Positions 6,156-51,121 of a stretch of DNA of 64,000 bases are shown piece by piece; the first letter of the stretch is position 1; each line of letters opens with the position of its first letter. Under the pieces are notes generated by a model. The model made no database searches, was not told the DNA's origin, and saw only the letters and a list, made by a program, of their open reading frames with translations. Source of the DNA: a virus. Where the stretch lies: positions 1-64,000 of IMG/VR virus record IMGVR_UViG_3300045988_127105; one strand, 5' to 3'. The translations under genes were made by a program, and so were the position numbers.

Positions 6156-6158
6156 CCT

Positions 6159-7458: not shown

Positions 7459-7496
7459 ACGCAAACTTGGTCACTAAACTAAGTTTGCGTATTTTT
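7459..7496 (+). terminator. Rho-independent terminator with an overlapping TAnnTTTG box
   Basis: ACGCAAACTT (7459-7468) pairs with AAGTTTGCGT (7481-7490), then ATTTTTG. TATTTTTG at 7490-7497 could be the promoter for the 7530 gene. Confidence 0.65.
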
Positions 7497-7529
7497 GTAT
7501 CACAAAACCTCTTAAACCGTTTTCCTTGA

Positions 7530-8424: not shown

Positions 8425-8468
8425 TTAAGAAAGGGTTTAATACTTTTTTCATTGAAAATTATAAGTAG

Positions 8469-8504
8469 AAGAAGGCTGTCCGTGATGGATAGCCTTCTTT
8501 TTTT
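8469..8504. terminator. Bidirectional terminator between convergent operons
   Basis: AAGAAGGCT (8469-8477) pairs with AGCCTTCTT (8491-8499), followed by a T run. Confidence 0.75.
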
Positions 8505-11169: not shown

Positions 11170-11181
11170 ATCTGTTTTCTT

Positions 11182-25637: not shown

Positions 25638-25675
25638 AAAAAAGTGGTGAACTTTTAGAAGGTTCACCACTTTTT
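25638..25675. terminator. Bidirectional terminator between the fibre genes and the giant ORF
   Basis: AGTGGTGAAC (25642-25651) pairs with GTTCACCACT (25661-25670). An A run lies upstream and a T run downstream. Confidence 0.75.
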
Positions 25676-25682: not shown

Positions 25683-28600
25683 TTATTCTATCCTATCCAA
25701 ATCTTCTACAGCCTCCTGCATTATCATCTCAATATTCTTATTCGCGAAGTCCACCTGCTTCTTATCATCGGCCCACTTCTTTCTCATCGTGTTCCAGTGT
25801 CTCATTCGCTTTTCCGCATTCTTGATGATATTCACCTTTCTTTGCTCAGGCGAACCTTCGAACTTTTCCAATGCAGCAGCATTTTCAATCCTCTTCATCG
25901 TAGGCACGTTCTTCGAGTTCAGCTTGTCGTTATTGGCGATAGTCTGTTCCATTTCCTCCTTGTAGTTATACCATTTGGCTTTGGTTCTCGCCATGCTCGA
26001 CTGTTCTCTTGGAGTATAGAAGAGTGAGCGCAAGAATGGCACGTCGCCCACTTCTATCTCGTCTGTCTTGCCAGTCGTTGCCTTTGCGACCAAGCCTGCA
26101 GTGCGTTGAGTAAATGTGCCCATACCACCACTCCACGAACCGAAGAAATGATTGAGCATCGACGGGTCTGTTGCCCAGTCAAGAACCTCGTTGCCCTTCA
26201 TTTCCGGATTGCCAGGAGCTATATTGTTGGTCTTGGCGTTCACCCACTTGTTCAAGTCCACAAGTCTTGCCGGAACATTATTATAGGCGTTCTGCCATGC
26301 CGGGTTAAGCTCTGTCTTATCGCCCGTTCGTCTTATTGGCGCACCCTTCCAGTCGTTGTTAAGCCACCATTCAATGAACGGAACTATAGCAGTAGGAGCA
26401 ATACCTTCTGTAGTCATGCCAACTCCATTTTCCAAGCTCTTTTCATAGTTCGGATTATTCAAGAAGTCCATTACTGGGAATAGCTGCGACATACAGCCCA
26501 CGGCATCCATCGCCATGTTTCTCTGGCTCTTCACGTTCTTGGCAAATGTCTGTCCGGCTGCCAAGTCACCAAGACTATAGAACGCTCTCAATTCAATGGC
26601 CAACGGCACAGTCACAAATTTGTTATTGCCCACATATATACACAGGTTGTTTCGTCTGATATAGTCAGGCAACTCGCCGTACGGATCCTTCACGTTACCT
26701 CTGTCCTTATCGTCCTCATTCTGTATAATAGCATTGTTGACAGCAGCCATAATCAACGCTAAGGCAAACGGTGCAGATGTCATAGCAACAGTAGTACCCA
26801 CAGGCGCACGCTTGATATTCTTGAACAACAGGTTCGTGCTCTGAATGCCAGCATTAAAGAACATCGAGTAGTTTCTTAGGTAGCCAGCCACAAAACCGTA
26901 TGTGTTTCGCCTTGCCTTCTGCCAATCACCCATTTCTCCGTTCTTGAAGCTCTTTATAGCATCACCCGAACCATGACGGTTGAAGTTTGTCGATACCTCC
27001 TTTGCGTCATACGCGCTTCTTGCTGCCGAACGTCCCAAGTCTCTTGATGTGCAATATGTGGCAAATCGTGCCATGTTCTCAGCCACCTCGTTCAGATTCT
27101 CCACGTTCTCGCCTAATTTCTTAAGCACTTCCACAGCATTAACCATAACCTTCTTCGCGCCCTTTGCCGATTCCTTCTCCACGATACTCTTGTAGCTCTT
27201 CTCCATATCGTGCATCGAGAACAACTGTACAAAGCCTGTCTCGCCACCGTTCTCCATGAACTCCTTGAAGTATCGCTCCATCTTCGAGTTGCCAAGCGTG
27301 CCCTCTCTGTATCGGGCATACAGTCCGAAGCCTACACCATTCTTGAAGTCTTTCATCTTCATGCTCTTTAAGCTTCCTGCACCCTCATTGTAGAACATAT
27401 TCAGCGGATTAAGCTCACCATAATAGCGTGACCACTTTGCAAGATATCTTCCACCTTCCTTTGCAGCAACATGCGAAGATGCAAATTCCATGTCTCTCAC
27501 GATGTTTCTCATCACAAACTCTGGGCTCCACGATGTTGAGGCCATAGCCATCCATCGTGTCACAGCCTGCAACGACCTGACGCTTGCCTTGCCGTTCTCC
27601 AGCATTCCGTTCAAAGCCTGTGCTGCTCTCGGATTGCCAAGCACCACAAATCTGTGTGTTCTTCCGGCTATCTTCACGTCCACAAAGTGTTGGCTCTTGT
27701 CCTTCGCTCTTTGGAACTTGAAGCCTATGTCCGTTCCATTGCTCAGACTCTTTGCCTCACCCTTAGCTTGCTTGGTCCTCATGTCCGTTTCAAAGGCATC
27801 CACAATGCTCGCAACATCATCTGCGCTTGCTCCTTCAGGAATCTGCGGATAAGCCTCCTCCCAAATGTCGTTGCCGTTCAAGTCCGTGCCAGTTTTCTCA
27901 ACCCACACCTTTGTCTCCTTCACAAGGTTCTGCTCTCCGCTGTTTCTCACGAATCGCGCAAAGGCTAACTTAATAGAGTTCTGACCTCCGTTTCTTATCG
28001 CACGGTTGCCCATCAAACCTATCTGTGCCAATATCTCCACATTGCTCAGACTCTTTCGTCCCTTGGCGTTCATCAGCGTCGTGCCAATATAATTGCTCGG
28101 GTCGCCCATTTCTGTCACATATCCGTATACGTCCTCAGCGGTTGCCTCGTCAAACTTTCTCAACGGTACATACCAGTCAAACATATTCAACACTCCGTCG
28201 TGTGTCTCCTTGGTGATAATGTTATTCTCGTAGTCCGAATTTACCGAATAGTCTGTAGCTGCCTTCACCTTCTTCCAGAAGTCGGCAACTGAGCCTTTCT
28301 TCATGCTTTCCATGCTCGCCTCCTGGCTCACAACCTCGTCAATAGCTCCGGCATCATCATAAGGCGATTTCATATCGTCAATGCCCTGCAATCCGTGCAT
28401 ACCCGAATAGTCATGCTCTTCTGCCTTAAAGTCCTTATCCAAGTTCTGTACTATCCACTCGTCCATCTGACGGTAGTACTCCTTCAAGTCTATCTGTCCC
28501 GAGTCAAGCTTCTTTCTAAGGTCGCTTCTCTCGTCCTTCCAAGCAGTCTCCAAAGCATCAACACTATCGGATTCTTCACTTTTCACTTTTCCCTTTTCAC

Positions 28601-31600
28601 TCCTTATCCAGTCTCTCACGAACAGCACACGGTTTCTCTCCAATCCATGTTTTCTAATCATATACAGGTTGAAGTTCCTTATTCTGTCCTCCACCTTCTT
28701 GCCATCGAAGCTATCCAAAACGCTCGACATAGCCTTGCTAAGCGGGTCCATATAGCGTATTTCGAAGAGCTTTGATTTGTCGCTCATCATGCCCTCCGTG
28801 ATATTCTGCATCAGATATGGGTTCATCGAACTATTCACATCTTCAATCTTCCTGATAGACGGATCAATAGCCTCCATCAGTTTCTTCAACGAGAGCATAT
28901 TATCCATGAAAGCCTCCGTAGCCATATAGCTATGACGGTCCAGGGCATGATGGTATCTATCCAAAGCGGTAGCAGCACTTGGAGCCGTGCGGTAGTGTAT
29001 CTCTCCGTCCGTTGCCTCCAGCCATTCCTCGCGACTCATACCCTCGAAGTCATGGCTCTTGCCGTCGTTGTCATACAGCTCGCCGCCCTCAATCTTCGTG
29101 TACTCCGTCTTCTCATGCTCTATCTTCCACCTCACAGCCTCAGCTCTCATCTTCCACAGCGGACTGTCTCCATGCTTCTGCACATTCTTCGCCAACCAAA
29201 GCATATACTTCACGGCCTTTACGTTAGGCGAAACTCTGTAGCCTATCTCATGCAGGGCATCTGTCACCTTATTCTTAATGTAGTTCCAGAATCCCGGCTC
29301 ACCCTTTCCGTCCTCTGCGCTCTTGGCGATAAACTCCTCAATAGCGTCATAGAATCCAAGGTGATTCATGTTCATCTTTTCCTTCACATAAGCTCTCAGC
29401 TCGGCATTGATAGGATTATCCAAGTCCATCCAAAGACCACGCATGTAGTCATTGAATTTATCTCCAAGCAATCCTCTCATGCCCTTGTGTCCTACGGTCT
29501 CGTGCCATACGGTTTTCTCCGCGGTATACGAGTCATGGATATTCGGCATATACAGATGCACCTCGCCCGTCTTCTCGTCATACCAGCCAGTCACCTGCTT
29601 GCCATTCTCTATGTCCTTGCGCACCTTCGGGTTCTCAATCTCCTCAACCGAGTTCACCATCTTCACCTTGCCTCCAGTTCTCTTCGCAACCTTCTCCACG
29701 GTCTTGATGATACGCTCGCTCACAGCATTCGAAGTCCCCGAAGTCTTCTCAGGTGTTACAACACCATCGCCTTCTTTTCTAAAGAAAGTCTCCCCATCTG
29801 TTAAATTTTTACTCTCATCAAGCAATTTTTTGCCCGAATCGTAGGATTTCTCAACTCCTTGCAGTAACTTTGCGGTTGAAATATAACCGTTGGTTGTACT
29901 GTTCAAAGGGAGACTGTCGGATTCGTTCGCTTTCTCGGAACCTTCCGACGTTATATTTTTAGAGTTGCTTGGTGTCATGTCCAAAGGGGAACTGTCGGGT
30001 AACACCGCTGTGCCAGGAGTGTCAGGCAGCTCTATTTTTGTTACCTCATAGCTATGAGGTTTATTTTCTTCCCCACCTCTGAACTCTTGCATAGTAGTCT
30101 TCACACGGTATATCTTACCGTCCATCTCTACTGCGCCATAAAGTCTATGTACAAGGATATTGTTTCCATATCCAAGCTCGGCTTTTCTTTTTCCGGTTTC
30201 GTCCTTTACGTTATAATCCGCGTGAATCTCAGCCTCGATGCTCTCATGAATAACATCTGTAAGCTTTGGAAGGACGGAAAGATGAATATCAAGATTCTCA
30301 CTTTTACGAACAGCACTTTCTGAAAGATATTTTTCAACAGCCCTTTTGCTGATAATATAAGGTGTACCATCGCGCATAGTAGGCATTTCTGTCTTTCCCA
30401 TTGTTACAAGGTTTTCTCTTGCCCATTCTCTGGCATTTTTCAAAGAAGTTTCAATATTGTTACCAAAGGGAGACTTCTCAACCTCTACCACCTTCACCTT
30501 CTCCTTATTCAGATTAGGCATAACGATTCCTTTCTCCTCCACAGCTCTGTCTCTCACAGCATCAAAGTGTTCCTTGCTGTCTGAGAAGGTATCACCAAGC
30601 TCCATGCGGTAATGCACCTTGCTTTCTTCCTTTACCTTTACGCCAAGCTCCGAAAGTCTGTCAAGTACATCCTTTAGCTTTTCTTCCTTTACCTCGGCAA
30701 GCATCGTGTTTCCTCTTGTCTCAAAGTTACCGCCATCTACCATTTTCAGCAGCTCCTTATCAAGGAAATACTTGCCTCCTTTCTTGTTGCTCTTCGGGAC
30801 ACGAATAGTATAGTTTCGTGCCATTTTCATATAGTCGAAGCCTTGCTCTATCTTCACGTCTCCGTCCGAAGAAGTCACCTCTGTTATACCACCCTTGTTC
30901 GATGGCAATTCAAATTTTTCAGCTACGCTATTTATAGGCTTCTCGTTGGCAAGACCATTCGGCTCAAAATTCCCAGGCATCAAAATGCCTGTCTTCACAT
31001 CGCCTGTGTCTGTTGTGTACTTCACCAACTGACCGCCCAAGCCTTGCTCCTTAGTGTCAATCAAAGCTTGCAGCAAGTTTCCGGTAATGATATATCCGTC
31101 CTTACGGCTCTCGTTACTTGTCAGCTTGTCCCAGTTGGAGGTATCCATACTCAGCACGCGCAGATGATTGTCACCCATCGCGGATGCCTGTCTTGTCAGT
31201 CTGTCAATTATGCCTATAACGTCTGCCTTGTCGCTTCCTAATCCTGCCTTTCCATTTATGGGGAATGTTATCTTTCTTCGTCCGTCCAAGGTAGCGAACG
31301 ATACGGTAGAGGCATTTGGCGAGAAGTTGTCGGTTATCTTTATGTCTATCAGTCTGCCATAGCTATTGCCGAATCCGCTCAACTCAGCAGGATTGTTCAT
31401 GTCTGTTGGCAGTACAAATGCGTCTTCCGTGTTGAAGGTTTCAAGAATACGGTAGAACATTTCAGCCTTAGCCTTCAAGTTCTTCACCACCTCTTCGCCC
31501 TTTTCATTCTCTACTTTGTAGATGTTATCTTGTTGGTAAATGGCCATTTGGGCAATCTGCTCGTCTGTCATGCCCGAGTTCTTCTGATTTCGCAACGCAT

Positions 31601-34600
31601 CCTTTAGATGCTTTTCACGGGCTTTGGCAGCTGCCTTCCTGGCACGCTCTTCTATCTTTGCCCCTTCTTCTTTTGCCTTGTTGATGAAGTAATCTTCTAT
31701 TGCCTTTTTCTTTTCTTTCTTGTACTCGTCCCAACTCTTGCCGCCCGTGAGTCCGTCCTGAGCTTTCTTTACTTCCTCAGCTTTCATAGGCTTTTTCAGC
31801 ACAGCCATATTCACCTTCTCTACATAAGTATTGTCGGCAAAAGCATTGTCACCTCCTGGCTCTGAGCCTTCCTTCCAAACGCCCTTGTTTATGGTCTTTG
31901 CTTTCAGTGGCAACTCGGTTATCTCCAAGTCGTTTTCGCCCATTTCGTTCAGACGTTGTATCTCGGCTGCATAAAGGTCGCCTATCTCTTGCAACATCTT
32001 CTCTTGCTCTTTCACTTTCAGCAAAGCCATACGGCCAAGCAACTTGCTCGCGTCGCCTCCTGCCTCACTACTCATGCCGTCAGAAGAAGAAACCAACTTT
32101 TGTGGGTCTACTGCCGACAAGTCTGCTCCATAAGACTTCTCCCATCCGAATGGGTCTGCCATACGTGCATACAAGTCAAGGTGCTCTGCCATGTATTCCT
32201 TCACTACCTTGTCGCCGTACTTATTGGTAATGTCGGCTACTTCCATTTCATTGAACTTGCTCTTCTGTGAAGAAGTGGTGTTTGCGTCCAATGATTTCAG
32301 CTTTGCCTTGAACATCATCAACAGTCGCTGCTCTGCCGGGATAAGCGACACAACGTATTCGTATGCGCCTCTTGCCACCTGTCCCGTTCTGTCTATACGT
32401 CCACGCATCTGCACCTCATCGTTCACGTCAAGCTGCTGCTGGGCAACAATCATCACTCGTTTTCTCTGGTCGGCATATTTGCTTGAAGCATGGAGTGATA
32501 TACCAGTTGCCGCACTCTTGTTCAAGATTAGCGCGTCTATCTGCCCGTCGTTAAACTCTCTCGCAAGTTTCTTCTTGTCTGTGTCCGCACGCTTCACCTT
32601 CGTTACCGTGCCGTTCTCGTTATACGCAAACTCTGTCTGCCTGCCAGTCAACTCGCCTACCTTATATCCTGCCTTCGTCAATTCGTTCTTGATAACGTCG
32701 ATAGGAGAGAGGGATAGTCCGGTACTTGTCTTTCTTATCTTTTCTTCAAGCGCATGGTATGCTTCAACGGCATCTGCGCCTAAGTCTGATAGGTTTATGT
32801 ATCCGCTTTCGCTTTCGTCTTTAGCGTTCTTGCTTGTATAGCGAAGCGTACCTTCAAGTCCTTTCTTTAGTGATGTGCCCAAGTCGGGAGCGTCCATTTC
32901 TTCGCCAAGCGCAAGGTTACCCGTCTGCGACTCGTTGGTATTGTTCAATGCTATCACAGGCTTCATGCCTTGCTTCAAGTAGTCAATAGCTCTTTCTGCT
33001 GCCGACTTTGCTTTAAGCGAGAGAAGCACTTGCTGCACAGTATTGAATGCCTTGCTTGCAAACGGTTGGTTCTTTATTCCCAAGGCTTCTGTGCCACGCT
33101 TTATGCCCATCGACGACTGCACCTCTGCAAGTTCTTCATTACGTCTGTCTACGTATGCGCTTACATAGGTTCTTTGGAAGTTGATGATGTCGTTGAACAG
33201 ACCGATGATGCTGTCATACTGCTCGCGCTGTTCGGCAACAACTTCGGGGTCGTCAATGGCTTTCCAGTCAATAGTCACGCCTGTCATGTCTCGCTCGCGA
33301 CGTATCATCTGTCCGCATTGTGTCAGCGCCTGACTCATGATTTCCTGTAGTGTGGCTCCTCCACGCTTCACGGCGTCTATCAAGTCGGATGCTTTTAGTC
33401 CTCCCTGGTTCATTGCTGTTCTTAGCGCATAGATTGGCATGTTGTCGGGACGCTTTGCGAATGTTGCAGAGAAGAATGTTACGTTCTTTGCCTTCTGAAT
33501 GATGTGCTGGAAGTAGTTGCCTTGACCGCTGTCACCTCCTGCGGTATGGCTCTCATCCAATATCAGATAGCCGTTCTTCATGAGCTTTTCTATAGCGTCA
33601 CGTCGGGCTTGTCCGCTGATTGCTGCTGCACCAAACTTTTTGCCTTTGGCTAATTTTCTTTCCTTACGATTGCCATTCTCGTCAAACTCATATACGCCGT
33701 TGCTTACTTGGCTGTATGTCGTCAGAACGTAATCATACTCCTTTGGTAGTTCTCCGTTCTTTTCTATATAGTCAAGCACTCTCTTTACTTCACTCTTTGA
33801 AGGCAAGGCAAATACTACGTTTCCGTCAGCGTCTGTAATGGCAGCTTCTTTTGCGCTTCCAAATACAAACGGTCTCAATTCTTTGCTACCTATGTCTACC
33901 AAGTCACGATATACGTCACTCAGCAATCCTGCTGTCTTTGTGAAGTATACTGGCACTTGTCCTTGTTTCTTGGCGTATCTGATAAGCGATGCTGCCTGTC
34001 TACCCTTGCCAATACCTGTCATATCACCGATGATAAAGGCATTGCCTTTCTTTGCCTGTTGCAAAGCGAGAGCTACTGAGTCTACTTGCTCTGCTGCAAG
34101 ATGTGCGTATAGGTCTGCTTTATCGTTGTAGCCCAGTTCGTCTACCAAGAATTGGTCTGCATCACCCAGTTTTTCGAGGTTCTTATTAACTGCGTCTTGT
34201 TGGTCGGCTGGCATAACGGCTTTAAGAGTGAAAGGGTTTTCACTTCTTGGCGTATAAGCAACCTTTTCGGCACTTAGTCCACGTACGGGTCTGTCCACCC
34301 GCTCCAGTTGTCCCCGTGGTCTCCCTCCGTTCCCGGCATCGGTAGTTTCATCAGCATTTGGCTGAGTGTTAGGTCGTCCATTTCCTCCTGGTTCATTTCC
34401 TCGCTGCTTGTTGGTTCCAGTGGTTGGTTCCTTGCTTGGAGTAGGCTCTGCCCCTGCTCCGTTTGCTCCAGTAGCTCCATCAGGAAGTCCTCCATTTTCT
34501 CCTGGCTTGGTTCCTCCTTCTGTCCCCAATACATTGTCGGAAACTGGTTCGGCAGTCTTGTCATGTACTCCTCCAGTACGAACTGAAGGCTTTTGTTCGC

Positions 34601-37600: not shown

Positions 37601-40600
37601 GTTCGCCCGTCTTCTTGTCTACCTTCTGTTCTTTGGTCTTCGAGTCAATATCGGGAATAGCCAAGTCTGGGTTCTCGTCTGCACGTATCCACACGCCAAG
37701 CTCGTTAGCCTCCACACGCTTGCCGTTCACGGCTGCTGCCATTGGAGGATAGAGCTTACCGTCTATCACCTGCATCGCACGATACACCTTTACGGTCTCG
37801 CCATTCTCAAGCTCCTCAAGTGTAGCCTCGTCAGTCTCCTTGTGGTACTTCAAGTCCGAATCGGTCTCCTCGCTCTCACGGATCACCTCCTCAGCTTCCT
37901 TCTCGTCCGTCACCACCTCAATACCAGTCTTCTTGGTTATCTCCGTAGCGATCCGCTTGATAGCCTTGTCTACTTCTCGCTGACCTTTTCTTGCTTGAAC
38001 GTCTCTATCAGGGCTTCCTCCATTGTCATTCCCGGGTTTGCCTTCCTTATCTCCCTCCAATGGGCCACCGTTTTCTTCGGTAGATACATCATCGATATTC
38101 TTCCGCTCGAGTGTCTTATCTCCACTCTTTGCAAGTCCTTCTTTTCTTCTTCTGTCATTTTCTCGTTCTTTTAATGATTTTTCTGATATGTTTAATAGAG
38201 TAGGATTATCTGTAATTTCAGACATTGCATCCTTGCCGTGTTCTTGTGCGTATGTTACAAGATGTGCTAAAGCTTCGTCGGCAAGCATATAAAGCGCATC
38301 TGTATCATCCATTTCCGAAGCTCGTTCTGTATACTCTTTCATATTTGACAGAACTTCAACAACTCGTTCAAGTTCCTCTCGTGTAAGAGTATTCATATCT
38401 GTTATCGAATATACAAGAGCCTCGACCCTTGAAGGGTCTACTTCATTGTCCGCATGAACCGACTCATGCTCAAATGTCTCACGCAATTCTTCAGAGCCAG
38501 TACTGCCTTCAAGGTATATATGAATCTTACCATCTTCGTAATATCCTGGATAATGAGCACCCTCTGGCATATTTTCGATAATGGTCTTATCATTTTCTGT
38601 TTTCGCCGCATCCGCCAAGTCCTGCTTCGTCCTCAACACAACAGGCTCGTCATACCCATTACTCTTGGCAAACTCTTTCACATACTCTCCCATTTGGTCG
38701 AGTATACGCTCACGTTCTTCACCCTTGGCTTCCTTAAGCTGCTCTACGGCTTTGTTGTAGTCTGCTTCGCTTGTGATGACGTTTCCTCCTGGTGCTTGCG
38801 GTTCAGTTCCCTCAGAGCTGCCAGCATCGCCATTTCCTTCTTTGCTTGAATGTCTTGTTTCATAGTTCTTCCAGTTTCTAAGTTTCAAAAATTCCTTTAT
38901 AAACTCTTCATTCGTAGGTCTCTCGCCGAACATTTCCGTCTGGTTGGCGTCAGCATAAGGAGCGGCATTTCTGTTATACGCCATCATCAGCTCACGGAAG
39001 TCCTCAACCTTACCCTCCAGAGCAAGAGCAATAGCCTGAGATATAGGGTCAAATCTGTCCGCAGCGTTCTCGCCAAACATAGCAGGAGTGCGCAAGTATG
39101 CATCCACACCGCTTCCGCCTTGACGAGCTTCGTACAGCAACTGCACTGCCTGGTCTATCTCCTTCATCAGAGCATAGTCGCCAAGTTTCATATTGTCCGT
39201 CACGGCACGGATGCCGTTCAGAGCCTTGGTTTTCAGCATAGCGTCAGCGCCCATCATGCGGATAGTGTTCTCCGAGAACACACTGCCCAATAGCAGGTTC
39301 TTCACGAAGTCCTTGCCTGCTGCCGAAAGCTTGTCCTCGCCCTCACGCAATCCCGCTATCTCGTTCAGACCAATCACGCCCTTATCAATTAAACGCTTTA
39401 GCAACGAGTTTATTGCAGTAGGATTGTTAAAGAATGCGTCAAGACTGCCACTGCCCTCTATCTCGGCTATAATGGCACCTACCTCGTCAGTACTTAACAC
39501 CTTGGCATTCTTTACCGACTGCTCTGTATTGCCAATACTCTTGGTCTCTTGCCTGTTGAAAAGGTCAAATGTCTTACTTGTAAGCGGCATCTTTTTGTCG
39601 GGTACAAAATATACTGTACCCTTAAAGCCTGCCTCTTCTATTTGCTTTGGAGTCCAGCCGAAGCCTTCTGCGTTTTCACTTAGGCTCTCATAATACTTGC
39701 CGTCAGTACCATAGCGTTCCGCAAGTTGTTTACCCATTGTCGTGCCATTTCCGCTTAACAGAATACCATCCTGCACAACTGGCACATTCTTTAGTGCTTG
39801 TCCGCCAAAGTCTCTGCCAATTTTCTCTGTAAACAGACGCGACTCCTTGTCTTTGTAAGAACGTGAGTTTGAGGAAGACCCGTCTTCATTAACTGGGAAC
39901 CCCTCGTTCTGCTTAAAGTCATTAAACGGATCGTGCGAAGGTGTAAGTCCTGAAACCTCGCCATAAAAGTATTGACCTGTTATCTTAGTTCCGTCAGGAA
40001 GAGTGATAGAACCACGTCGTCCGGGAATCTTCTTTGATTTCTCGAACTTCTCTCGCACAGCAACACTCACTTCACCTACCGAACCTACACTACCTTCTTC
40101 ACCTACACTACCTACCTTCTCCATTCCAGCCTTAACCTTATTCGCGGTCATTACCTTCTTGATATTGGTATATAGCTCCAGCTCTGCTTTGGCGGCATCA
40201 ACCGCCTTCGTCTTCTGAGCCTCAGCTTCCTTGGCGTCGTTCAAATCTCCCGTGTAGTCCACCTTTATTTTTTCGGCTTCCTTCAGCATCTTCTCGGCTC
40301 TCTTTATCTGTCCGTCTACAGCAGTTTCTGCGTTCTCGCCAAACTGCGAAGACATCCACTCCGCTCCCTGTTCAGGTGTCATTTGCGAATAGTCAGCAGT
40401 CTCACGGCCTTTCGTGTCCTTCATCATCGGCACAGGTGACCCATCGGCAAATGTTAAAGTTTCGTTACTTCCATTGCCATTATCGGATGGATTCTTTTTT
40501 TCTCCTTCCCCTATAGGCTTTACATCTTCAACTCCAGGCGCCGACGCGCCCTCCTTCGGTGTTACAACACTCTCAGTCTTAGTATCGGATTTTTCACTTT

Positions 40601-43600
40601 TCTCTTTTACCTTTTCACTCTCAGCGTAAGCCACCGAGTTCATAACCTCCAACATCTCCTGATAGTTCTTGGCATAGTCCTCCGTCTTTTCCACATGGTC
40701 AAGCTGCACGTCCTTCTTGCTTACGAAGTCCATTTCCTTTGTATTCGGGTCAAGCACGCTAAGCATGTCGCCAACGTTTTCTCTCGCTCTACCTTCACTA
40801 TCAAACGCAACATCGCCAGCTCCAACAATCAGCAGTCTGCCATTGTTGTCCTTCACAAACAACATCTGGCCGCCCTCTTGCTTCTCGCCGTTCAGCTCGC
40901 CCTTGTAGCTCCATTGCTCCACATGTTTCTGCACGGTCTCAGCAATCTTCTGTTCAGTTCCGCGATACATGCCCACAGCCTTAGCCTTGGCGTTGATATA
41001 GTCGGCAAAAGGTGCAAGCTGTTCCTGCGTCAGTCCCGAGTTTATCAGCTCCATGTATATCTGAGGTTCCGAAAGACCCTCCTTTGTCAGTCTCTCATAC
41101 TCCTGCTTCAACACATCGTTGCTTTCCAAGGCTGCATTAAACGCCTTCTCTGCATTCTTCATGTTGTTCAGCACCTCATCCACAGCCTCGTTGTTAGGAT
41201 TCTCCGTGCCAAGGTTATTCTCCTCAACCACGTCCTTGCCCTCTGTCTGCGACTGGTCGGGATGCAACGTTCCTTCCGGGAACTGTTCTCCCTCATAAGC
41301 CTTTCTCAGAGCCACACAAGCGTTCTGTTCCTCCTCGCTACGCTTCAACGGGTCTTTGTCCATAGCTGCCTTCAACTGTTCAGCAGTAAAGCCAAACGTC
41401 TCAGCTACAGTCTCCAATGTTTCTTGTGCCGTTTTTTCGTCCTTTATCTGAGCTGCACCATAGGCATTACTCAAACGTTGGTTTTCGCGTCTCAGTCTGA
41501 GTGAGTAAACTACAGAGTCTCGTTCGTCTTCAGTTTTGACGATATGTTCTGACAATAGCTCTCCATATTTACTATACTCGCTTATAGTGCCTCCTCCATA
41601 ACCAATATACTCCATCATAGGACGTGACGAAGGAACCGTTCCCATAACCAAAGCAGAGAACTTAGCCTTTGTGTCCCAAGGTATTGTATTGTCTGCCATT
41701 ATCTCATCATAGGCAGTCTTCACAAATTCAGCGTCCGTATCCTTATACGACTCCTCGCCCTTTCCTCTGGCTGTTGTCTTCTTGGTTCGCAATGCCCAAT
41801 GAGTAAATCCTTCCGGTCTTAACGGCATGTCTTCTATAAGCCTTTCGTACATTTTTCGTAACGGTGCCTTGTTACTTCCGAACAACTGTTCTTTCTCCTC
41901 ATTGGTGAATGTATATCCACCAAATGATGCTCGCTGACCGTCAGACACCATAAGGTTGGCAAGGTTTCTCTTCACCATGTCAAGATAGCTTTCCTTTTTG
42001 CCATCCTTCGTATAACGATTAGGCAGTCTTGCGTGTGTCAGCTTCAAGGCTACAACGTTGGCACAAGCCTCAAGTGTGCCTTCAACGCTCCAGAAGTCGG
42101 TATCATGTCCCTCTATCATCTTGGCGACATTACCACCGACGTGCATACCCCAACCTTCCATCGCTATTTGAAACACCTTGGCTGGAATACGCTTCACGCC
42201 ACTCACATTATAGATTCCTGCACCTACAGCACCACCAATGCCACCCATAGTAGCCCAGCTTGCGCCCTCAGAAAGACCGCCCATAGTCATAAGCTTCACG
42301 GTATTGCCTATCGAAGTGTCGTCGCCAGTAGAGTAGTTCTGCACGGCTGCATTCGTCGAACCGTACAGCACACCCGTCACGCCTTGACTCACAGCACCCG
42401 CTGTAGCCATTCTGACGATACGACCGCGCAATGACGTGTTCGCTATTCTTGCAGCCTGGGCTACTCCGTTACCCATAACCTTGCCTGCCACGGCTGCACC
42501 AGCCTTTCCTAATGCACCAAACACAGGAGCGTCTGCAGCAAAGCTCAATGTTCCGCGTGCCACTCTCGCACCCATACCCGGTTTAACATAAGGATTTTCC
42601 CCGTTGTCGGTCATAGCCATTCCTTGCTGAGCATACTGTCTCTGCTTCTTCGACATCATACCCATCGACAAGATAGTGCCTATCATCGAGTCGTTGACAC
42701 CACGGATGATATATTCTGCCGTACTCTTAGGCATATTACGGCTCAATTCGCTCTTCTCAAACTCCTCAGCTATCTTTGCTTGCAAGCCAGGAGCTATATA
42801 ATTCTTTACATAATCCTCTGGGTCGATACCTAACGAAGCTGCCTTTTCTGCTATTTCCTTCTGCATCTTCGGGTCGGAGAACAACCCAGCCATGTCTTTC
42901 TCGGCATTCTTGCTGAGCTGATTCATTAGCTTGTCAGGATCAAGGGCTTCATTGTAAGCCTTACCTGCTGCCATATATGCAAATGGAGAGGCCTTGCTCA
43001 AAGCATCTTCTGCTGCAACACCTTTAACTGTCGCATCCTTAAACATCTTTTGGATACTATTGTTTATATATCCGCCAAGCTGTTTGTCAACAAGCTGTCT
43101 GCTGCTTTCTTCCAACTCATCCTCCAACTGTCCGCGTGTCTTAACAATATTGTTGTTCACGTCCTCGTTCCCAAGGTCAAAGGCAGGAGCATTACGTCTG
43201 TCTCGCTCACGGTTTGTAAATTGTCTTCCTGCCTGCTCCACATTCTGCCCCACGATATGCTGTCTCTCCCTTGTCTGCTTCACCATCTGTTTCACAGCAC
43301 CCGGCTTTGTGTAGCTCACGGGAGCCTGTAATCTCTGTACGGCATTCGCATTCTTCAATCCGCGCACAAGCTCGCTATCATTCTCCATCGGCGCTGAAGC
43401 GCTCTCATATGCCGTAGTGTTTCCATGTGTTACAACACCACCGCCCCACTTCTCTTTCGCCACGCTCTGTTGTGCTCTGCCTAATGCGGTCTTTGGTTGC
43501 TGCTGAGGCTTTGTCGCTCTTGGCTTCTGCAACTTGCGCATAAACTCCTCATACGAACCACCCAAGTCAGCACCATTCTTTGTGAACAGGTCGTACACAG

Positions 43601-43724
43601 CCTTTCTGTTGGCATAATTGCTGTTACCAGTAAACTTCTTTTCGAATGTATTATAGTCCTGGCTATAGCCGTTGTCAGCCATAAGCTTGTACATCCTCTG
43701 CAACTTACTTCTATCTATTGCCAT
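25683..43724 (-). CDS. Giant polyvalent protein (6,013 aa): zincin x3, N6-adenine-type MTase, SNF2-like helicase, ParB-like (tentative), membrane-active termini
   Basis: Uninterrupted 18,042-nt ORF. Motifs read from the translation: EPSAGNG and VVTNPPFG; IIGDMTGIGKGR, LILDESH, QMRGRIDRTGQ; HESVH, HEYAH, HETVGH; Gly/Ala-rich hydrophobic N-terminal stretch; C-terminal hydrophobic helix. Confidence 0.9.
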   Translation of the reverse strand: MAIDRSKLQRMYKLMADNGYSQDYNTFEKKFTGNSNYANRKAVYDLFTKNGADLGGSYEEFMRKLQKPRATKPQQQPKTALGRAQQSVAKEKWGGGVVTHGNTTAYESASAPMENDSELVRGLKNANAVQRLQAPVSYTKPGAVKQMVKQTRERQHIVGQNVEQAGRQFTNRERDRRNAPAFDLGNEDVNNNIVKTRGQLEDELEESSRQLVDKQLGGYINNSIQKMFKDATVKGVAAEDALSKASPFAYMAAGKAYNEALDPDKLMNQLSKNAEKDMAGLFSDPKMQKEIAEKAASLGIDPEDYVKNYIAPGLQAKIAEEFEKSELSRNMPKSTAEYIIRGVNDSMIGTILSMGMMSKKQRQYAQQGMAMTDNGENPYVKPGMGARVARGTLSFAADAPVFGALGKAGAAVAGKVMGNGVAQAARIANTSLRGRIVRMATAGAVSQGVTGVLYGSTNAAVQNYSTGDDTSIGNTVKLMTMGGLSEGASWATMGGIGGAVGAGIYNVSGVKRIPAKVFQIAMEGWGMHVGGNVAKMIEGHDTDFWSVEGTLEACANVVALKLTHARLPNRYTKDGKKESYLDMVKRNLANLMVSDGQRASFGGYTFTNEEKEQLFGSNKAPLRKMYERLIEDMPLRPEGFTHWALRTKKTTARGKGEESYKDTDAEFVKTAYDEIMADNTIPWDTKAKFSALVMGTVPSSRPMMEYIGYGGGTISEYSKYGELLSEHIVKTEDERDSVVYSLRLRRENQRLSNAYGAAQIKDEKTAQETLETVAETFGFTAEQLKAAMDKDPLKRSEEEQNACVALRKAYEGEQFPEGTLHPDQSQTEGKDVVEENNLGTENPNNEAVDEVLNNMKNAEKAFNAALESNDVLKQEYERLTKEGLSEPQIYMELINSGLTQEQLAPFADYINAKAKAVGMYRGTEQKIAETVQKHVEQWSYKGELNGEKQEGGQMLFVKDNNGRLLIVGAGDVAFDSEGRARENVGDMLSVLDPNTKEMDFVSKKDVQLDHVEKTEDYAKNYQEMLEVMNSVAYAESEKVKEKSEKSDTKTESVVTPKEGASAPGVEDVKPIGEGEKKNPSDNGNGSNETLTFADGSPVPMMKDTKGRETADYSQMTPEQGAEWMSSQFGENAETAVDGQIKRAEKMLKEAEKIKVDYTGDLNDAKEAEAQKTKAVDAAKAELELYTNIKKVMTANKVKAGMEKVGSVGEEGSVGSVGEVSVAVREKFEKSKKIPGRRGSITLPDGTKITGQYFYGEVSGLTPSHDPFNDFKQNEGFPVNEDGSSSNSRSYKDKESRLFTEKIGRDFGGQALKNVPVVQDGILLSGNGTTMGKQLAERYGTDGKYYESLSENAEGFGWTPKQIEEAGFKGTVYFVPDKKMPLTSKTFDLFNRQETKSIGNTEQSVKNAKVLSTDEVGAIIAEIEGSGSLDAFFNNPTAINSLLKRLIDKGVIGLNEIAGLREGEDKLSAAGKDFVKNLLLGSVFSENTIRMMGADAMLKTKALNGIRAVTDNMKLGDYALMKEIDQAVQLLYEARQGGSGVDAYLRTPAMFGENAADRFDPISQAIALALEGKVEDFRELMMAYNRNAAPYADANQTEMFGERPTNEEFIKEFLKLRNWKNYETRHSSKEGNGDAGSSEGTEPQAPGGNVITSEADYNKAVEQLKEAKGEERERILDQMGEYVKEFAKSNGYDEPVVLRTKQDLADAAKTENDKTIIENMPEGAHYPGYYEDGKIHIYLEGSTGSEELRETFEHESVHADNEVDPSRVEALVYSITDMNTLTREELERVVEVLSNMKEYTERASEMDDTDALYMLADEALAHLVTYAQEHGKDAMSEITDNPTLLNISEKSLKERENDRRRKEGLAKSGDKTLERKNIDDVSTEENGGPLEGDKEGKPGNDNGGSPDRDVQARKGQREVDKAIKRIATEITKKTGIEVVTDEKEAEEVIRESEETDSDLKYHKETDEATLEELENGETVKVYRAMQVIDGKLYPPMAAAVNGKRVEANELGVWIRADENPDLAIPDIDSKTKEQKVDKKTGELKWKFKLDKGGKDATGKKATDIPAAYNPYWHTSRSPLNDQFKSAWIRPNIVVVECEVPVSELSSGYKAERAKDAVGEVDWKSGVVSGEVYKQTGRARKVILSRWCKPVRVLSDAEVAQRAKEFVGDAKVEIPENVLTPRQRIEFEKAGFKIGAPEKGVKKSDQINEALKRGLQIDNSVKEFRTAKGEVYGFTDGEKIYLDTKKMKPETPLHEYAHLWCDMLRKVNPKEWENVKKLFDKVEGLKEEVQKLYPELEGDALYEEMITTYSGREGTKKLEDVVRKLAAEEGKSVTESAKAQGFLEKVKVALTKYWKGVADVLGIHFTTAEEVADKVLADWAKGVDPRGSEKGKVKSEESDSKVEGVVTPKGDIKDATAPKGEEPLAILPKKEEKAFDPIGKAAENYKKDHPLTEGEIRSSDVDDIAKDMAVDYLNGEVTDDLHRAVYESIYEKVKDAKMKNATKQADNKTETTETPKVEASASPIEGLKNAAEKFAKEKEAAAEAMGEVKKPQQKADDAAVEASNKKVNDLWNDLLKAGREDLSASFIGLNARQLEVLPKLVSAMAENAYLRIKRGMHNLEDVVKEMRKEFAPAAQVFKKEDVDAIYEQMMNIRYRDGEQRMSLKEWADYYEKSSPKHKEELVGDSKEAEDRKLREKRFVDKVNIQLGFGHKFNGIVELRKMAEKCGLKDVKDTDLQELAETAIVHRARGIASSESTNNTEKFKRIKKLYENQPSLNQRDSERVMKQQYSTPAPYAFLADMYVKAGIEVKSALEPSAGNGMLTIGLPKDAVHVNDIDAQRLANLQRQGFKNITSQDGTQPFADKDVDVVVTNPPFGSATTKEYDGYKISSLEGQMAINALESMKDNGRAAIIIGGKTEYAKNGSLNPKDKALLGFLYSHYNVEDVINVDGSLYAKQGTTYPTRIILINGRRFDENAYPPVKDKARAEAVKSYDELYKRINDDILRSGRMDSPVGEGGEDANAKPNRPSVADVNEEGVRAGGNGGGEQKPSVRTGGVHDKTAEPVSDNVLGTEGGTKPGENGGLPDGATGANGAGAEPTPSKEPTTGTNKQRGNEPGGNGRPNTQPNADETTDAGNGGRPRGQLERVDRPVRGLSAEKVAYTPRSENPFTLKAVMPADQQDAVNKNLEKLGDADQFLVDELGYNDKADLYAHLAAEQVDSVALALQQAKKGNAFIIGDMTGIGKGRQAASLIRYAKKQGQVPVYFTKTAGLLSDVYRDLVDIGSKELRPFVFGSAKEAAITDADGNVVFALPSKSEVKRVLDYIEKNGELPKEYDYVLTTYSQVSNGVYEFDENGNRKERKLAKGKKFGAAAISGQARRDAIEKLMKNGYLILDESHTAGGDSGQGNYFQHIIQKAKNVTFFSATFAKRPDNMPIYALRTAMNQGGLKASDLIDAVKRGGATLQEIMSQALTQCGQMIRRERDMTGVTIDWKAIDDPEVVAEQREQYDSIIGLFNDIINFQRTYVSAYVDRRNEELAEVQSSMGIKRGTEALGIKNQPFASKAFNTVQQVLLSLKAKSAAERAIDYLKQGMKPVIALNNTNESQTGNLALGEEMDAPDLGTSLKKGLEGTLRYTSKNAKDESESGYINLSDLGADAVEAYHALEEKIRKTSTGLSLSPIDVIKNELTKAGYKVGELTGRQTEFAYNENGTVTKVKRADTDKKKLAREFNDGQIDALILNKSAATGISLHASSKYADQRKRVMIVAQQQLDVNDEVQMRGRIDRTGQVARGAYEYVVSLIPAEQRLLMMFKAKLKSLDANTTSSQKSKFNEMEVADITNKYGDKVVKEYMAEHLDLYARMADPFGWEKSYGADLSAVDPQKLVSSSDGMSSEAGGDASKLLGRMALLKVKEQEKMLQEIGDLYAAEIQRLNEMGENDLEITELPLKAKTINKGVWKEGSEPGGDNAFADNTYVEKVNMAVLKKPMKAEEVKKAQDGLTGGKSWDEYKKEKKKAIEDYFINKAKEEGAKIEERARKAAAKAREKHLKDALRNQKNSGMTDEQIAQMAIYQQDNIYKVENEKGEEVVKNLKAKAEMFYRILETFNTEDAFVLPTDMNNPAELSGFGNSYGRLIDIKITDNFSPNASTVSFATLDGRRKITFPINGKAGLGSDKADVIGIIDRLTRQASAMGDNHLRVLSMDTSNWDKLTSNESRKDGYIITGNLLQALIDTKEQGLGGQLVKYTTDTGDVKTGILMPGNFEPNGLANEKPINSVAEKFELPSNKGGITEVTSSDGDVKIEQGFDYMKMARNYTIRVPKSNKKGGKYFLDKELLKMVDGGNFETRGNTMLAEVKEEKLKDVLDRLSELGVKVKEESKVHYRMELGDTFSDSKEHFDAVRDRAVEEKGIVMPNLNKEKVKVVEVEKSPFGNNIETSLKNAREWARENLVTMGKTEMPTMRDGTPYIISKRAVEKYLSESAVRKSENLDIHLSVLPKLTDVIHESIEAEIHADYNVKDETGKRKAELGYGNNILVHRLYGAVEMDGKIYRVKTTMQEFRGGEENKPHSYEVTKIELPDTPGTAVLPDSSPLDMTPSNSKNITSEGSEKANESDSLPLNSTTNGYISTAKLLQGVEKSYDSGKKLLDESKNLTDGETFFRKEGDGVVTPEKTSGTSNAVSERIIKTVEKVAKRTGGKVKMVNSVEEIENPKVRKDIENGKQVTGWYDEKTGEVHLYMPNIHDSYTAEKTVWHETVGHKGMRGLLGDKFNDYMRGLWMDLDNPINAELRAYVKEKMNMNHLGFYDAIEEFIAKSAEDGKGEPGFWNYIKNKVTDALHEIGYRVSPNVKAVKYMLWLAKNVQKHGDSPLWKMRAEAVRWKIEHEKTEYTKIEGGELYDNDGKSHDFEGMSREEWLEATDGEIHYRTAPSAATALDRYHHALDRHSYMATEAFMDNMLSLKKLMEAIDPSIRKIEDVNSSMNPYLMQNITEGMMSDKSKLFEIRYMDPLSKAMSSVLDSFDGKKVEDRIRNFNLYMIRKHGLERNRVLFVRDWIRSEKGKVKSEESDSVDALETAWKDERSDLRKKLDSGQIDLKEYYRQMDEWIVQNLDKDFKAEEHDYSGMHGLQGIDDMKSPYDDAGAIDEVVSQEASMESMKKGSVADFWKKVKAATDYSVNSDYENNIITKETHDGVLNMFDWYVPLRKFDEATAEDVYGYVTEMGDPSNYIGTTLMNAKGRKSLSNVEILAQIGLMGNRAIRNGGQNSIKLAFARFVRNSGEQNLVKETKVWVEKTGTDLNGNDIWEEAYPQIPEGASADDVASIVDAFETDMRTKQAKGEAKSLSNGTDIGFKFQRAKDKSQHFVDVKIAGRTHRFVVLGNPRAAQALNGMLENGKASVRSLQAVTRWMAMASTSWSPEFVMRNIVRDMEFASSHVAAKEGGRYLAKWSRYYGELNPLNMFYNEGAGSLKSMKMKDFKNGVGFGLYARYREGTLGNSKMERYFKEFMENGGETGFVQLFSMHDMEKSYKSIVEKESAKGAKKVMVNAVEVLKKLGENVENLNEVAENMARFATYCTSRDLGRSAARSAYDAKEVSTNFNRHGSGDAIKSFKNGEMGDWQKARRNTYGFVAGYLRNYSMFFNAGIQSTNLLFKNIKRAPVGTTVAMTSAPFALALIMAAVNNAIIQNEDDKDRGNVKDPYGELPDYIRRNNLCIYVGNNKFVTVPLAIELRAFYSLGDLAAGQTFAKNVKSQRNMAMDAVGCMSQLFPVMDFLNNPNYEKSLENGVGMTTEGIAPTAIVPFIEWWLNNDWKGAPIRRTGDKTELNPAWQNAYNNVPARLVDLNKWVNAKTNNIAPGNPEMKGNEVLDWATDPSMLNHFFGSWSGGMGTFTQRTAGLVAKATTGKTDEIEVGDVPFLRSLFYTPREQSSMARTKAKWYNYKEEMEQTIANNDKLNSKNVPTMKRIENAAALEKFEGSPEQRKVNIIKNAEKRMRHWNTMRKKWADDKKQVDFANKNIEMIMQEAVEDLDRIE
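26725..26820 (-). other. Hydrophobic helix in the C-terminal region of the giant protein
   Basis: APVGTTVAMTSAPFALALIMAAVNNAII. Confidence 0.5.
28563..28601 (-). repeat. Intragenic linker repeat, copy A (encodes SEKGKVKSEESDS)
   Basis: 39 nt, 38/39 identical to 36531-36569. Confidence 0.9.
29487..29504 (-). other. HExxGH zincin-type motif (third metallopeptidase-like module)
   Basis: VHLYMPNIHDSYTAEKTVWHETVGHKGMRGLLG. The first His is aa 4741. Confidence 0.55.
29753..29764 (+). repeat. Copy 3 of GTGTTACAACAC (giant ORF aa 4654-4657, GVVT)
   Basis: Exact 12-mer in the context GGTGTTACAACACC. Confidence 0.9.
32350..34100 (-). other. SF2 / SNF2-like helicase module of the giant protein
   Basis: Motif I GDMTGIGKGR (about 34001-34040), motif II LILDESH (DESH at 33546-33557), motif VI QMRGRIDRTGQ (32380-32412). 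Confidence 0.75.
34820..35375 (-). other. N6-adenine-type DNA methyltransferase module of the giant protein
   Basis: SAM-binding LEPSAGNG (about 35275-35295) and catalytic DVVVTNPPFG (NPPF at 35109-35120). Confidence 0.8.
36503..36569 (-). repeat. Intragenic linker repeat, copy B, including copy 4 of GTGTTACAACAC (aa 2402-2405)
   Basis: CCTTCGGTGTTACAACACC (36503-36521) plus the 39-nt block 36531-36569. Encodes SEKGKVKSEESDSKVEGVVTPKG. Confidence 0.9.
36957..36971 (-). other. HExxH zincin-type motif (second module)
   Basis: EKIYLDTKKMKPETPLHEYAHLW. The first His is aa 2252. Confidence 0.55.
38454..38468 (-). other. HExxH zincin-type motif (first module)
   Basis: KIHIYLEGSTGSEELRETFEHESVHAD. 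The first His is aa 1753. Confidence 0.55.
39721..39960 (-). other. ParB / DdrB-like stretch (tentative)
   Basis: GLTPSHDPFN ... VPVVQDGILLSGNGTTMGKQLA resembles the ParB-superfamily core strand-helix, from memory only. Confidence 0.3.
40553..40619 (-). repeat. Intragenic linker repeat, copy C, including copy 5 of GTGTTACAACAC (aa 1052-1055)
   Basis: 59/67 nt identical to 36503-36569 by hand alignment. Encodes SEKVKEKSEKSDTKTESVVTPKEG. Confidence 0.85.
42190..42600 (-). other. Gly/Ala-rich hydrophobic region near the N-terminus of the giant protein
   Basis: GMGARVARGTLSFAADAPVFGALGKAGAAVAGKVMG ... GGIGGAVGAGIY. Confidence 0.5.
43427..43438 (+). repeat. Copy 6 of GTGTTACAACAC (giant ORF aa 96-99, GVVT)
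   Basis: Exact 12-mer. Confidence 0.9.
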
Positions 43725-46443: not shown

Positions 46444-46463
46444 AACTAACATTCTTTCTCTCC

Positions 46464-46680
46464 AGTACCTTTTTCTTGGGGAATATAACATTGACCCCCT
46501 TTCCGGTAGTACCTTTTCCAGGAAATATACTAACGACCTCCTTTCTGTGGAGTACCTTTTCTGGGGAAAATGATGATGACCTCCTTTGAGAACAGTACCT
46601 TTTTATACCTATGCTTTTATCTACTATAATTCGCAGCCAGTACCTAAGCCCCCACCCCCTTTGGGTCGTTCATCATCCAC
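46464..46680. repeat. Tandem direct repeats, 43-45 bp period, four clear copies plus a degenerate fifth
   Basis: AGTACCTTTT at 46464, 46508, 46551 and 46594, and AGTACCT at 46639. Each unit also carries GACC(T/C)CCTTT. Confidence 0.8.
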
Positions 46681-51120: not shown

Positions 51121-51121
51121 T

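Follow-up and report, generated by a model that had tools for sequence, protein, structure and literature searches.

The analysed window, i.e. the 64,000 nucleotides at positions 1 to 64,000 of the IMG/VR virus record IMGVR_UViG_3300045988_127105, belongs to a temperate short-tailed (podovirus-type) Bacteroidales gut phage and carries on its minus strand a single 18-kb gene for a protein of 6,013 amino acids (aa). By analogy with its homologues, this giant protein is probably a polyvalent protein of the phage type, namely a large internal ('ejection') protein that would be packaged in the virion and injected into the host. A preliminary description had already suggested a capsid-packaged effector injected with the DNA, and this central reading is probably right: homologues of the C-terminal module, gp47 of the Stx phage phi24B and gp69 of the Burkholderia phage JC1, were found in purified virions, and the gene lies in a podovirus context together with a gene for a T7 gp14-like internal protein. 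Packaging, injection and processing are all argued here from homologues. Most likely, the protein is a very large yet recognisable 'polyvalent / DarB-like' podovirus virion protein and not a new kind of system. The gene and the parts of its product, from the N- to the C-terminus, are as follows.

25683..43724, minus strand: giant gene, 6,013-aa polyvalent protein; uninterrupted ATG-initiated open reading frame with one terminal stop
43500..43724, minus strand: aa 1-75, N-terminal tandem motif domain (Y-D/K-L-x3-G-Y ... D-Y-x-T-F, twice), recognised from homologues
40575..43427, minus strand: aa ~100-1050, constant N-module, including a Gly/Ala-rich amphipathic region at aa 380-560
38775..40427, minus strand: aa ~1100-1650, DdrB-ParB-like block (Pfam ddrB-ParB PF18763 at aa 1309-1363, below threshold)
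38145..38627, minus strand: aa 1700-1860, metallopeptidase-like block M1 (HESVH at 1753), from a conserved motif
37140..37877, minus strand: aa 1950-2195, block D, an unnamed conserved domain of ~240 aa, from homologous segments in relatives
36525..37082, minus strand: aa 2215-2400, metallopeptidase-like block M2 (TPxHEYxHLW at 2252), from a conserved motif and a downstream Glu
34755..35417, minus strand: aa ~2770-2990, predicted N6-adenine methyltransferase (gamma-class order), from the MTS model and motifs
34275..34712, minus strand: aa ~3005-3150, low-complexity Gly/Pro/Asn/Glu-rich linker, from composition
31917..34103, minus strand: aa 3208-3936, predicted Strawberry-notch-type superfamily 2 (SWI2/SNF2-clade) helicase, from AAA_34 and Helicase_C_4
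29733..30590, minus strand: aa 4379-4664, LPD3-containing cassette (Pfam LPD3 at aa 4428-4552)
25686..29732, minus strand: aa 4665-6013, constant ~1,350-aa C-module (metallopeptidase-like motif M3, long helical region, helix 5644-5662, LPD38), from homologues

Giant virion proteins of other phages

Polyvalent proteins were defined by Iyer, Burroughs, Anand, de Souza & Aravind (2017; PMC5512222) with P1 DarB as the methyltransferase (MTase)-helicase archetype, and the LPD38 and DdrB-ParB domains were described there as restricted to phage-type polyvalent proteins, judged likely to be packaged in the capsid. The giant protein fits the phage type because several unrelated domains, an LPD family among them, are united in one polypeptide; an N6-adenine MTase is followed directly by a superfamily 2 (SF2) helicase, and the gene lies among virion genes in a phage with a portal-terminase packaging system. 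Pfam calls were judged against the family cut-offs, with the E-value and bit score given per model, and those above them were LPD38, Helicase_C_4, AAA_34, LPD3 and MTS. The polyvalent-protein logic recognised previously was therefore retained, but its exemplar, P1 DarB, turned out to be an analogue without detectable homology, and 'DarB-like' describes how the giant protein probably works rather than the family to which it belongs. DarB (2,255 aa) likewise has an N6-adenine MTase fused to an SF2 helicase, is carried in the virion and presumed to be delivered along with the DNA, and darB adjoins the portal gene. In contrast, P1 is a myovirus, and DarB has neither the LPD38 C-module nor the other cassettes and needs the separate DarA, Hdf, DdrA, DdrB and Ulx, while here a DdrB-ParB-like domain is fused in cis.

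Among podoviruses, the Bcep22-like group has a 'massive DarB-like protein' (e.g., Bcep22 gp75). JC1 gp69 (4,515 aa), which takes up 22% of the genome and is arranged in the order lytic transglycosylase, MTase, helicase, LPD3, LPD38, was represented by 51 unique peptides in mass spectrometry of CsCl-purified virions. The Bcep22-like (Lessievirus) and Ralstonia podovirus giants resemble the protein described here in coming from short-tailed temperate phages and in being encoded by a large single gene at the end of the virion module; JC1 gp69 has its MTase, SF2 helicase, LPD3 and LPD38 in the same order, and ORF75 of the Ralstonia phage RPZH3 is detectably homologous over the last ~550 aa. The differences from the Bcep22-like giants include their N-terminal lytic transglycosylase, not found here, some 2,700 aa of other N-terminal content (N-module, DdrB-ParB, two metallopeptidase-like blocks and block D), an MTase-helicase that is dissimilar by tblastn and of the Strawberry-notch type, a host in the phylum Bacteroidota, and a length exceeding that of JC1 gp69 by ~1,500 aa.

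In the Stx phages (Sepvirinae), phi24B gp47 (2,811 aa; LPD5, LPD1, MuF-C and LPD38) was abundant in virions by mass spectrometry and absent from the cryo-EM map, and has been proposed as an ejection protein in a preprint. This protein and P27 gp51 (~2,800 aa) also belong to podoviruses, their gene being the last large one in the late operon and following genes for small membrane or internal proteins, and the C-terminal LPD38 region of P27 gp51 is homologous to that of the giant protein (25% identity over ~580 aa). They are, however, half the size, have no MTase-helicase pair, carry other effector domains and contain canonical HExxH motifs. In both P27 and RPZH3 the late operon ends with the giant gene, preceded by genes for small virion or membrane proteins, and the homology to P27 gp51 and RPZH3 ORF75 in the last ~550 aa was seen by BLASTP at aa 5344-5927.

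Three cultured temperate Bacteroides phages encode giants with a C-module 26-27% identical to the present one: BS-TP4 gp3 (5,391 aa), BKO1-TP3 gp55 (5,553 aa) and BF1-TP2 gp68 (3,633 aa). Their portals are related (34-38% identity), a homologue of the 246-aa gp14-like protein is encoded before the giant gene, the HExxxH motif is conserved, and BS-TP4 gp3 shares the MTase-helicase block too (40% identity). By contrast, their N-terminal 2,300-4,300 aa are unrelated by BLAST, except for a ~90-aa N-terminal motif domain in BKO1-TP3. BKO1-TP3 gp55 is annotated as 'DarB-like antirestriction'. In the paper describing these phages the giant gene is unmentioned and the terms 'DarB', 'polyvalent' and 'giant' are absent (PMC12694917), and the term 'polyvalent protein' was not found in the top-ranked literature on Bacteroides gut phages. 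BS-TP4 (locus L001) has a second very large gene, gp14 (2,645 aa, 26961-34898), with a reverse transcriptase nearby (35987-37477); gp14 was reported as the target of a diversity-generating retroelement (PMC12694917).

The same comparisons bear on whether the giant protein might be made but left unpackaged, acting inside the cell as an anti-defence, DNA-modification or superinfection-exclusion factor and standing among structural genes by chance. This is unlikely, albeit the case for packaging comes from homologues, an MTase with a helicase could act on replicating phage DNA, and a 7.8-kb block of plus-strand genes separates the giant gene from the portal gene, which is the next gene on the minus strand. 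Against it, the proteins sharing the C-module are physically present in phi24B and JC1 virions, both LPD38 and DdrB-ParB belong to the domains that Iyer et al. restricted to the phage-type, likely packaged proteins, and the giant gene is co-oriented with a gp14-like internal-protein gene that has kept its position in the three cultured relatives. Moreover, in BS-TP4 and BKO1-TP3 the giant gene is directly upstream of, and abuts, the portal gene, unlike here, where the plus-strand block intervenes.

The reading frame and the constant ends

The giant gene comprises 18,042 nt, or 28.2% of the window, and is the only open reading frame there of more than 1,000 aa; its predicted product has a mass of 668 kDa and a pI of 5.6. 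The description of it as a single uninterrupted minus-strand frame filling about 28% of the window was correct (ATG start, no internal stop), and all motifs quoted with it were present in the translation where they had been placed: VPVVQDGILLSGNGTTMG at aa 1314, HESVH at 1753, HEYAH at 2252, EPSAGNG at 2811, VVTNPPFG at 2866, GIGKGR at 3237, LILDESH at 3387, QMRGRIDRTGQ at 3772 and HETVGH at 4741. The same was true of its compositional features: glycine and alanine make up 37% of aa 401-500 near the N-terminus, the composition of aa ~3005-3150 is that of a Gly/Pro/Asn/Glu-rich linker, and the C-terminal region contains one strong hydrophobic helix at aa 5644-5662.

A frame of this length invites the suspicion of an assembly or annotation artefact, whether a chimera or separate genes that sequencing errors have fused, all the more as the window is a single sequence and the databases list many shorter relatives (1,000-2,400 aa). 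Such an origin is very improbable: some 6,000 sense codons without a stop are impossible by chance, and a relative from another, independent assembly (P0167, 5,726 aa) is collinear at 94-96% identity except for one clean cassette indel; no near-identical DNA was found among phage records. Fully sequenced cultured phages have versions of 5,391 and 5,553 aa, and more than 10 family members exceed 5,500 aa. One 'short' relative of 1,041 aa (locus L007; GCA_002440225.1, DJSH01000055.1) proved to be a gene-call artefact, its frame staying open for more than 13 kb (1-13126), as far as the edge of the locus. Within the locus there are 96 N, and the short call is suspected to start after this gap. Many other 'short' database relatives are probably truncated gene calls of the same sort, and 'short' stand-alone C-module proteins on long contigs were rejected as gene-call artefacts on the example of L007.

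The protein had been placed at the extreme end of its class, and 6,013 aa is indeed at the upper end; it is large but not unique, because the cultured relatives reach 5,391-5,553 aa and the family includes metagenomic members of 6,017 to 6,440 aa. Pavtok gp27 (5,007 aa) was named the 'longest known phage protein' in a 2021 paper, a length already exceeded by BS-TP4 gp3 and BKO1-TP3 gp55.

The tandem motif domain of aa 1-75 also heads many other giants, including BKO1-TP3 gp55 (hhalign E 2e-4 between the N-termini), and occurs alone in proteins of 56-250 aa. It might, speculatively, be a candidate capsid-targeting signal, by analogy with the first 30 residues (N30) of P1 DarB, which target proteins to the capsid (PMC9024508). 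The following N-module had no Pfam or PHROG family and no tblastn match in 50,697 phage records, while phmmer against 1.84e9 representative proteins returned 133 matches, mostly to proteins 4,000-6,440 aa long. The only match in the species-representative genome collection was a contig of Leyella (Prevotella) stercorea with 68% identity over the N-module.

The C-module ends with LPD38 (PF18857), matched at aa 5680-5898, near the C-terminus, with E 6e-28 and 95-98 bits. An AlphaFold2 (AF2) model of aa 4700-5899, built from 30 sequences, reached a predicted local confidence (pLDDT) of 72 and a predicted template-modelling score (pTM) of 0.67. A Foldseek search with it gave 74 matches at E<1e-3 in BFVD, with TM-scores up to 0.57 (query-normalised) and 0.71 (target-normalised); these alignments covered ~1,000-1,200 columns and led to the C-terminal parts of phage giants with LT_GEWL, RelA/SpoT or MTase domains. 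Because the fold match spans so many alignment columns, the conserved C-terminal unit is about five times the Pfam LPD38 model (189 positions). For the T7-type ejectosome proteins gp15 and gp16, no Pfam match and no significant fold match were found in the giant protein.

Whole-protein searches added little: PHROGs gave an 804-bit match to phrog_14770 (unknown function, a 3,427-position profile) and a match to phrog_616, NCBIfam nothing useful, and phmmer with both protein halves against PDB sequences nothing.

Exchangeable cassettes of the variable middle

The architecture of the giant protein consists of constant ends and a variable middle of exchangeable cassettes. In a BLAST comparison with 86 metagenomic relatives, the N-module was common to 58 and the C-module to ~47 (and to all three cultured Bacteroides phage giants), and the blocks in between were shared by ~38 (DdrB-ParB), 6-9 (M1), ~20 (block D), 39 (M2), 3-5 (MTase-helicase) and 9-16 (LPD3). 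Other cassettes found between the same ends in relatives are InPase, MuF_C, LPD5, LPD1, LPD14, PBECR2, LPD13, Kinase-PolyVal and PBECR3. P0167 lacks exactly aa 4379-4664, the LPD3 cassette, as a clean indel in an otherwise collinear protein, and in another relative (P0175) the MTase-helicase block and block D stand in a different order.

Repeated linkers mark some of the junctions. A 67-nt direct repeat occurs inside the giant gene in three copies, at 36503-36569 (the reference copy), 40553-40619 (88% identical to it) and 28535-28601 (72%); it encodes the linker SEKGKVKSEESDS..VVTPK, and the N-module and the M2 block each have one copy at their end. A 34-nt repeat with 82% identity, found at 43412-43445 (aa 94-105) and at 29738-29771 (aa 4652-4662, the start of the C-module), encodes GVVTP. 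Taken together, four of the five copies of the two repeats are at boundaries of mosaic blocks, and all three occurrences of the tetrapeptide VVTP in the giant protein (0.04 expected) are at major junctions. The linker repeats may be recombination handles or cleavage sites, which is speculative. As a general junction motif the VVTP linker was rejected: elsewhere it precedes the C-module only in P0168 and is clade-specific.

The most recognisable cassettes form the MTase-helicase pair. The earlier assignment of an N6-adenine-type MTase found support in a borderline MTS match (aa 2813-2917, E 1.4e-5, 25.2 bits against a cut-off of 23) and in intact TP (2785), motif I (EPSAGNG) and motif IV (NPPF, 2869) sequences, whose order is the layout of polyvalent adenine MTases in Iyer et al. 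2017 (PMC5512222). The helicase, previously called SNF2-like, is an SF2 helicase as proposed, but it is the Strawberry-notch models that match (AAA_34 at aa 3208-3504, E 4e-16; Helicase_C_4 at aa 3687-3936, E 7e-26; also ResIII and DEAD), while SNF2-rel_dom was not significant (E 0.08); its motif I lies at 3237, DESH at 3390 and motif VI at 3772. The Strawberry-notch type was noted by Iyer et al. in only 'a few instances' (PMC5512222). The region aa 2700-3950 is 43% identical to BS-TP4 gp3 and 27% identical to an Acinetobacter phage 'N-6 DNA Methylase', and tblastn with it against the 50,697 phage records (E up to 1e-3) recovered only BS-TP4, two Acinetobacter phage records and a short match in a Ruegeria phage. 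Further downstream, LPD3 was matched with E 1.5e-8 and 35 bits against a cut-off of 27.

The stretch tentatively named ParB/DdrB-like in the preliminary description matched PF18763 with E 7e-4 to 2e-3 and 18.6-20.3 bits, below the cut-off of 27.6, while relatives with a block homologous to it carry a precomputed PF18763 annotation. In the present protein and five close relatives GNGR is changed to GNGT and NDRDY to NSRSY. On its sequence the block is best described as a divergent allele. An AF2 model of aa 1201-2400, which includes this block together with M1 and M2, was poor overall (pLDDT 52.7) and better at aa 1220-1390 (pLDDT 72-92); its Foldseek search against the PDB gave no significant match, the ParB-like domain included.

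Block D, defined by the motifs YxxMQ..DGKLYPPMAA, AYNPY.HTS..NDQF and LSRW, has at least 55 distinct homologous segments, the position of which varies among relatives, and no Pfam family match. Two candidate identities were rejected: an R-S-E ADP-ribosyltransferase (YR, HTS, ECE), because the Arg and the second Glu are not conserved, and ART-PolyVal, which in P0061 and P0063 maps beside block D and not onto it.

Of the three zincin-type HExxH motifs announced previously, all are present and conserved, but the third, M3 (HETVGH at 4741, inside the C-module), has the form HExxxH, in every homologue examined, and no known zincin family was supported by the searches. Two HExxH motifs occur against 0.08 expected (shuffle P 0.003; 0.0004 with HExxxH included). 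A 'G-x-Y ... G-x-I-x-(I/L)-Y' strand pair (strand-turn-strand) stands before each of the three motifs, and hhalign relates M1 to M3 (E 1e-5) across the strand-turn-strand and HE region. The M1 motif was kept in 6/6 aligned sequences (this protein and five close relatives, all the homologues found), the His, Glu and His of M2 in all 31 distinct sequences and the M3 motif in 44. In a 10-sequence alignment of M2 (A5), with identities down to 32%, the motif and a Glu ~48 aa downstream were invariant; M2 and M3 each have an invariant Glu ~50 residues downstream. Gluzincins have such a downstream Glu. The cultured Bacteroides phage giants carry the HExxxH form too, and the Stx and Ralstonia phage proteins have canonical HExxH in a similar setting of a strand followed by the motif. 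Iyer et al. 2017 explicitly described a clade of polyvalent-protein metallopeptidases with HEXXXH and proposed the zincin-like metallopeptidase as a hub domain processing the polyprotein in phage-type polyvalent proteins. Pfam gave no support for M1 (DUF6782 at E 0.09 only), and the M2 and M3 profiles returned noise (SprT-like with 2/10 members, E 0.09; Peptidase_M76 with 1/10, E 0.21). It is the conserved motifs that carry the zincin assignment of M1-M3, since Pfam, PDB profiles and Foldseek gave nothing, and it is plausible but unproven.

A further possibility is that the giant protein is mainly a structural ejectosome protein, whose enzyme-like cassettes are decayed or non-catalytic spacers providing length or bulk, for instance to bridge the envelope and capsule of Bacteroidales or to occupy space in the capsid. 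The altered DdrB-ParB residues, the metallopeptidase-like blocks that match no family model and the borderline MTS score would suit this idea, as would the fact that conservation is highest in the N- and C-modules, which are non-enzymatic. Yet it is quite unlikely, as both the MTase (motif I, NPPF, TP) and the helicase (Walker A, DESH, motif VI) retain intact catalytic motifs and HExx(x)H with its downstream Glu is invariant across divergent homologues. In addition, relatives swap in clearly enzymatic cassettes, such as a kinase, InPase and PBECR nucleases, which argues for selection on activity rather than on length.

If the protein is packaged and injected, as is preferred here, the homologues suggest that it would be loaded into the procapsid, with the conserved N-terminal ~75 aa perhaps acting in targeting, as the first residues of DarB do. 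At infection it would leave through the portal and the short tail, at least partly unfolded, before or with the DNA, and the C-module, perhaps with the N-module and the gp14-like neighbour, would act as the ejection core. The C-module and this upstream gp14-like membrane protein would together help to build or extend a trans-envelope conduit. From what is known of such domains, the MTase-helicase pair may act on the incoming DNA and blunt restriction by the DarB logic, and the metallopeptidase-like blocks may release working units from the polyprotein by cleavage or have targets in the host. The variable middle would serve as a cargo bay re-assorted between strains by recombination.

Several observations weigh against this scheme. 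Virion mass spectrometry covers only the homologues from phi24B and JC1. The MTase-helicase region had no tblastn match to P1 DarB or to Bcep22-type proteins among the 50,697 phage records at E<=1e-3, and the anti-restriction role is therefore an analogy; MTS is barely above its cut-off and N6_Mtase below its own (E 1.6e-3). The DdrB-ParB allele may be inactive, because residues conserved in relatives are lost. The three metallopeptidase-like blocks gave no significant match in Pfam (including MPTase-PolyVal and MuF_C), PDB-profile or Foldseek searches, and the HExxxH spacing departs from the usual zinc-binding pattern. In the giant protein, unlike in JC1 gp69, a lytic transglycosylase was not found. 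Finally, Foldseek of the C-module against the PDB produced nothing significant, the best match being the PhiM1 ejectosome (8vb2_A) with E 0.34 and TM 0.09, so that structure lends the conduit role no support.

Neighbouring genes and implications

The other features that place the giant gene in its phage are listed below.

304-1452: tyrosine integrase with a Bacteroidota-type arm-binding domain
15679..17670, minus strand: P22-type portal gene (PF16510, E 3e-25; phrog_156, E 7e-58)
20912-21580: SU10-type adaptor
25639..25675: hairpin with a 17-bp stem and flanking A and T runs, between the giant gene and a convergent plus-strand gene
43737..45720, minus strand: two upstream genes from the open reading frame list, 267-aa coiled-coil and 400-aa low-complexity, co-oriented with and abutting the giant gene
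45751..46491, minus strand: 246-aa upstream gene, candidate T7 gp14-like internal virion protein with one transmembrane segment (PF24072, T7_gp14, E 1.6e-4, below cut-off)

A 712-aa open reading frame in the window has a terminase-like C-terminus, and no tRNA genes were found in the window. No tape-measure, tube or sheath gene had been seen in the preliminary description because the phage is of the podovirus type, with a P22-type portal and an SU10-type adaptor.

The three small internal-protein-like genes said to precede the giant gene exist as co-oriented genes of 246, 267 and 400 aa, but they are not very small, and only the 246-aa one has a (weak) internal-virion-protein match. Homologues of this gene occupy the equivalent position in BF1-TP2 (gp70), BKO1-TP3 (gp57) and BS-TP4 (gp1), with phmmer E 5e-21 to 2e-8. 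The 267-aa and 400-aa genes had no family matches and no detectable homology to same-position genes of other phages. As listed, the 267-aa frame (44917-45720) begins with TTG and shares 23 nt with the end of the next gene; translation more likely starts at an ATG four codons further in (MKRFKNRK...).

On the other side of the giant gene, the hairpin is likely a bidirectional terminator. The segment 22000-26000 has a low GC content (0.34-0.39 against ~0.47 around), inverted GC and AT skew and plus-strand genes, including a YadA-head-like repeat at 23060-23632 and a weak minor-tail match at 24590-25615; the segment resembles a receptor-binding or tail-fibre cassette that was exchanged and inserted between the giant and portal genes. 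In the early or regulatory part of the phage, a PcfJ-like protein is encoded at 51098-52318 (PF14284, E 2e-31); conjugative plasmids are the better-known source of this family.

The general idea behind the proposed function is already established by Iyer et al. 2017, the virion proteomics of Bcep22 and JC1 and the phi24B preprint; new here are the scale, the under-studied host lineage and the unusually clear cassette architecture, and no new principle is involved. A quarter of the phage coding capacity is invested in one protein, which points to strong selection on what is delivered at DNA entry. As a tentative extension, possible rather than probable, the ejection protein of this widespread lineage of gut Bacteroidales podoviruses may be a delivery chassis, in which fixed packaging and ejection ends hold a recombination-driven bay of anti-defence cargo that is swapped even between near-identical strains, the junction linkers (SEKGKVKSEESDS..VVTPK) being recombination handles, protease cleavage sites or both. 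If this is true, the folds of the ~1,000-aa N-module and the ~1,000-aa C-module, which lack a solved homologue, would be new structural components of podovirus genome delivery. Already on the preferred reading of a packaged and injected protein, if it is right, the family would represent a natural catalogue of anti-defence cargo for abundant Bacteroidales phages of the human gut and a possible protein-delivery scaffold.

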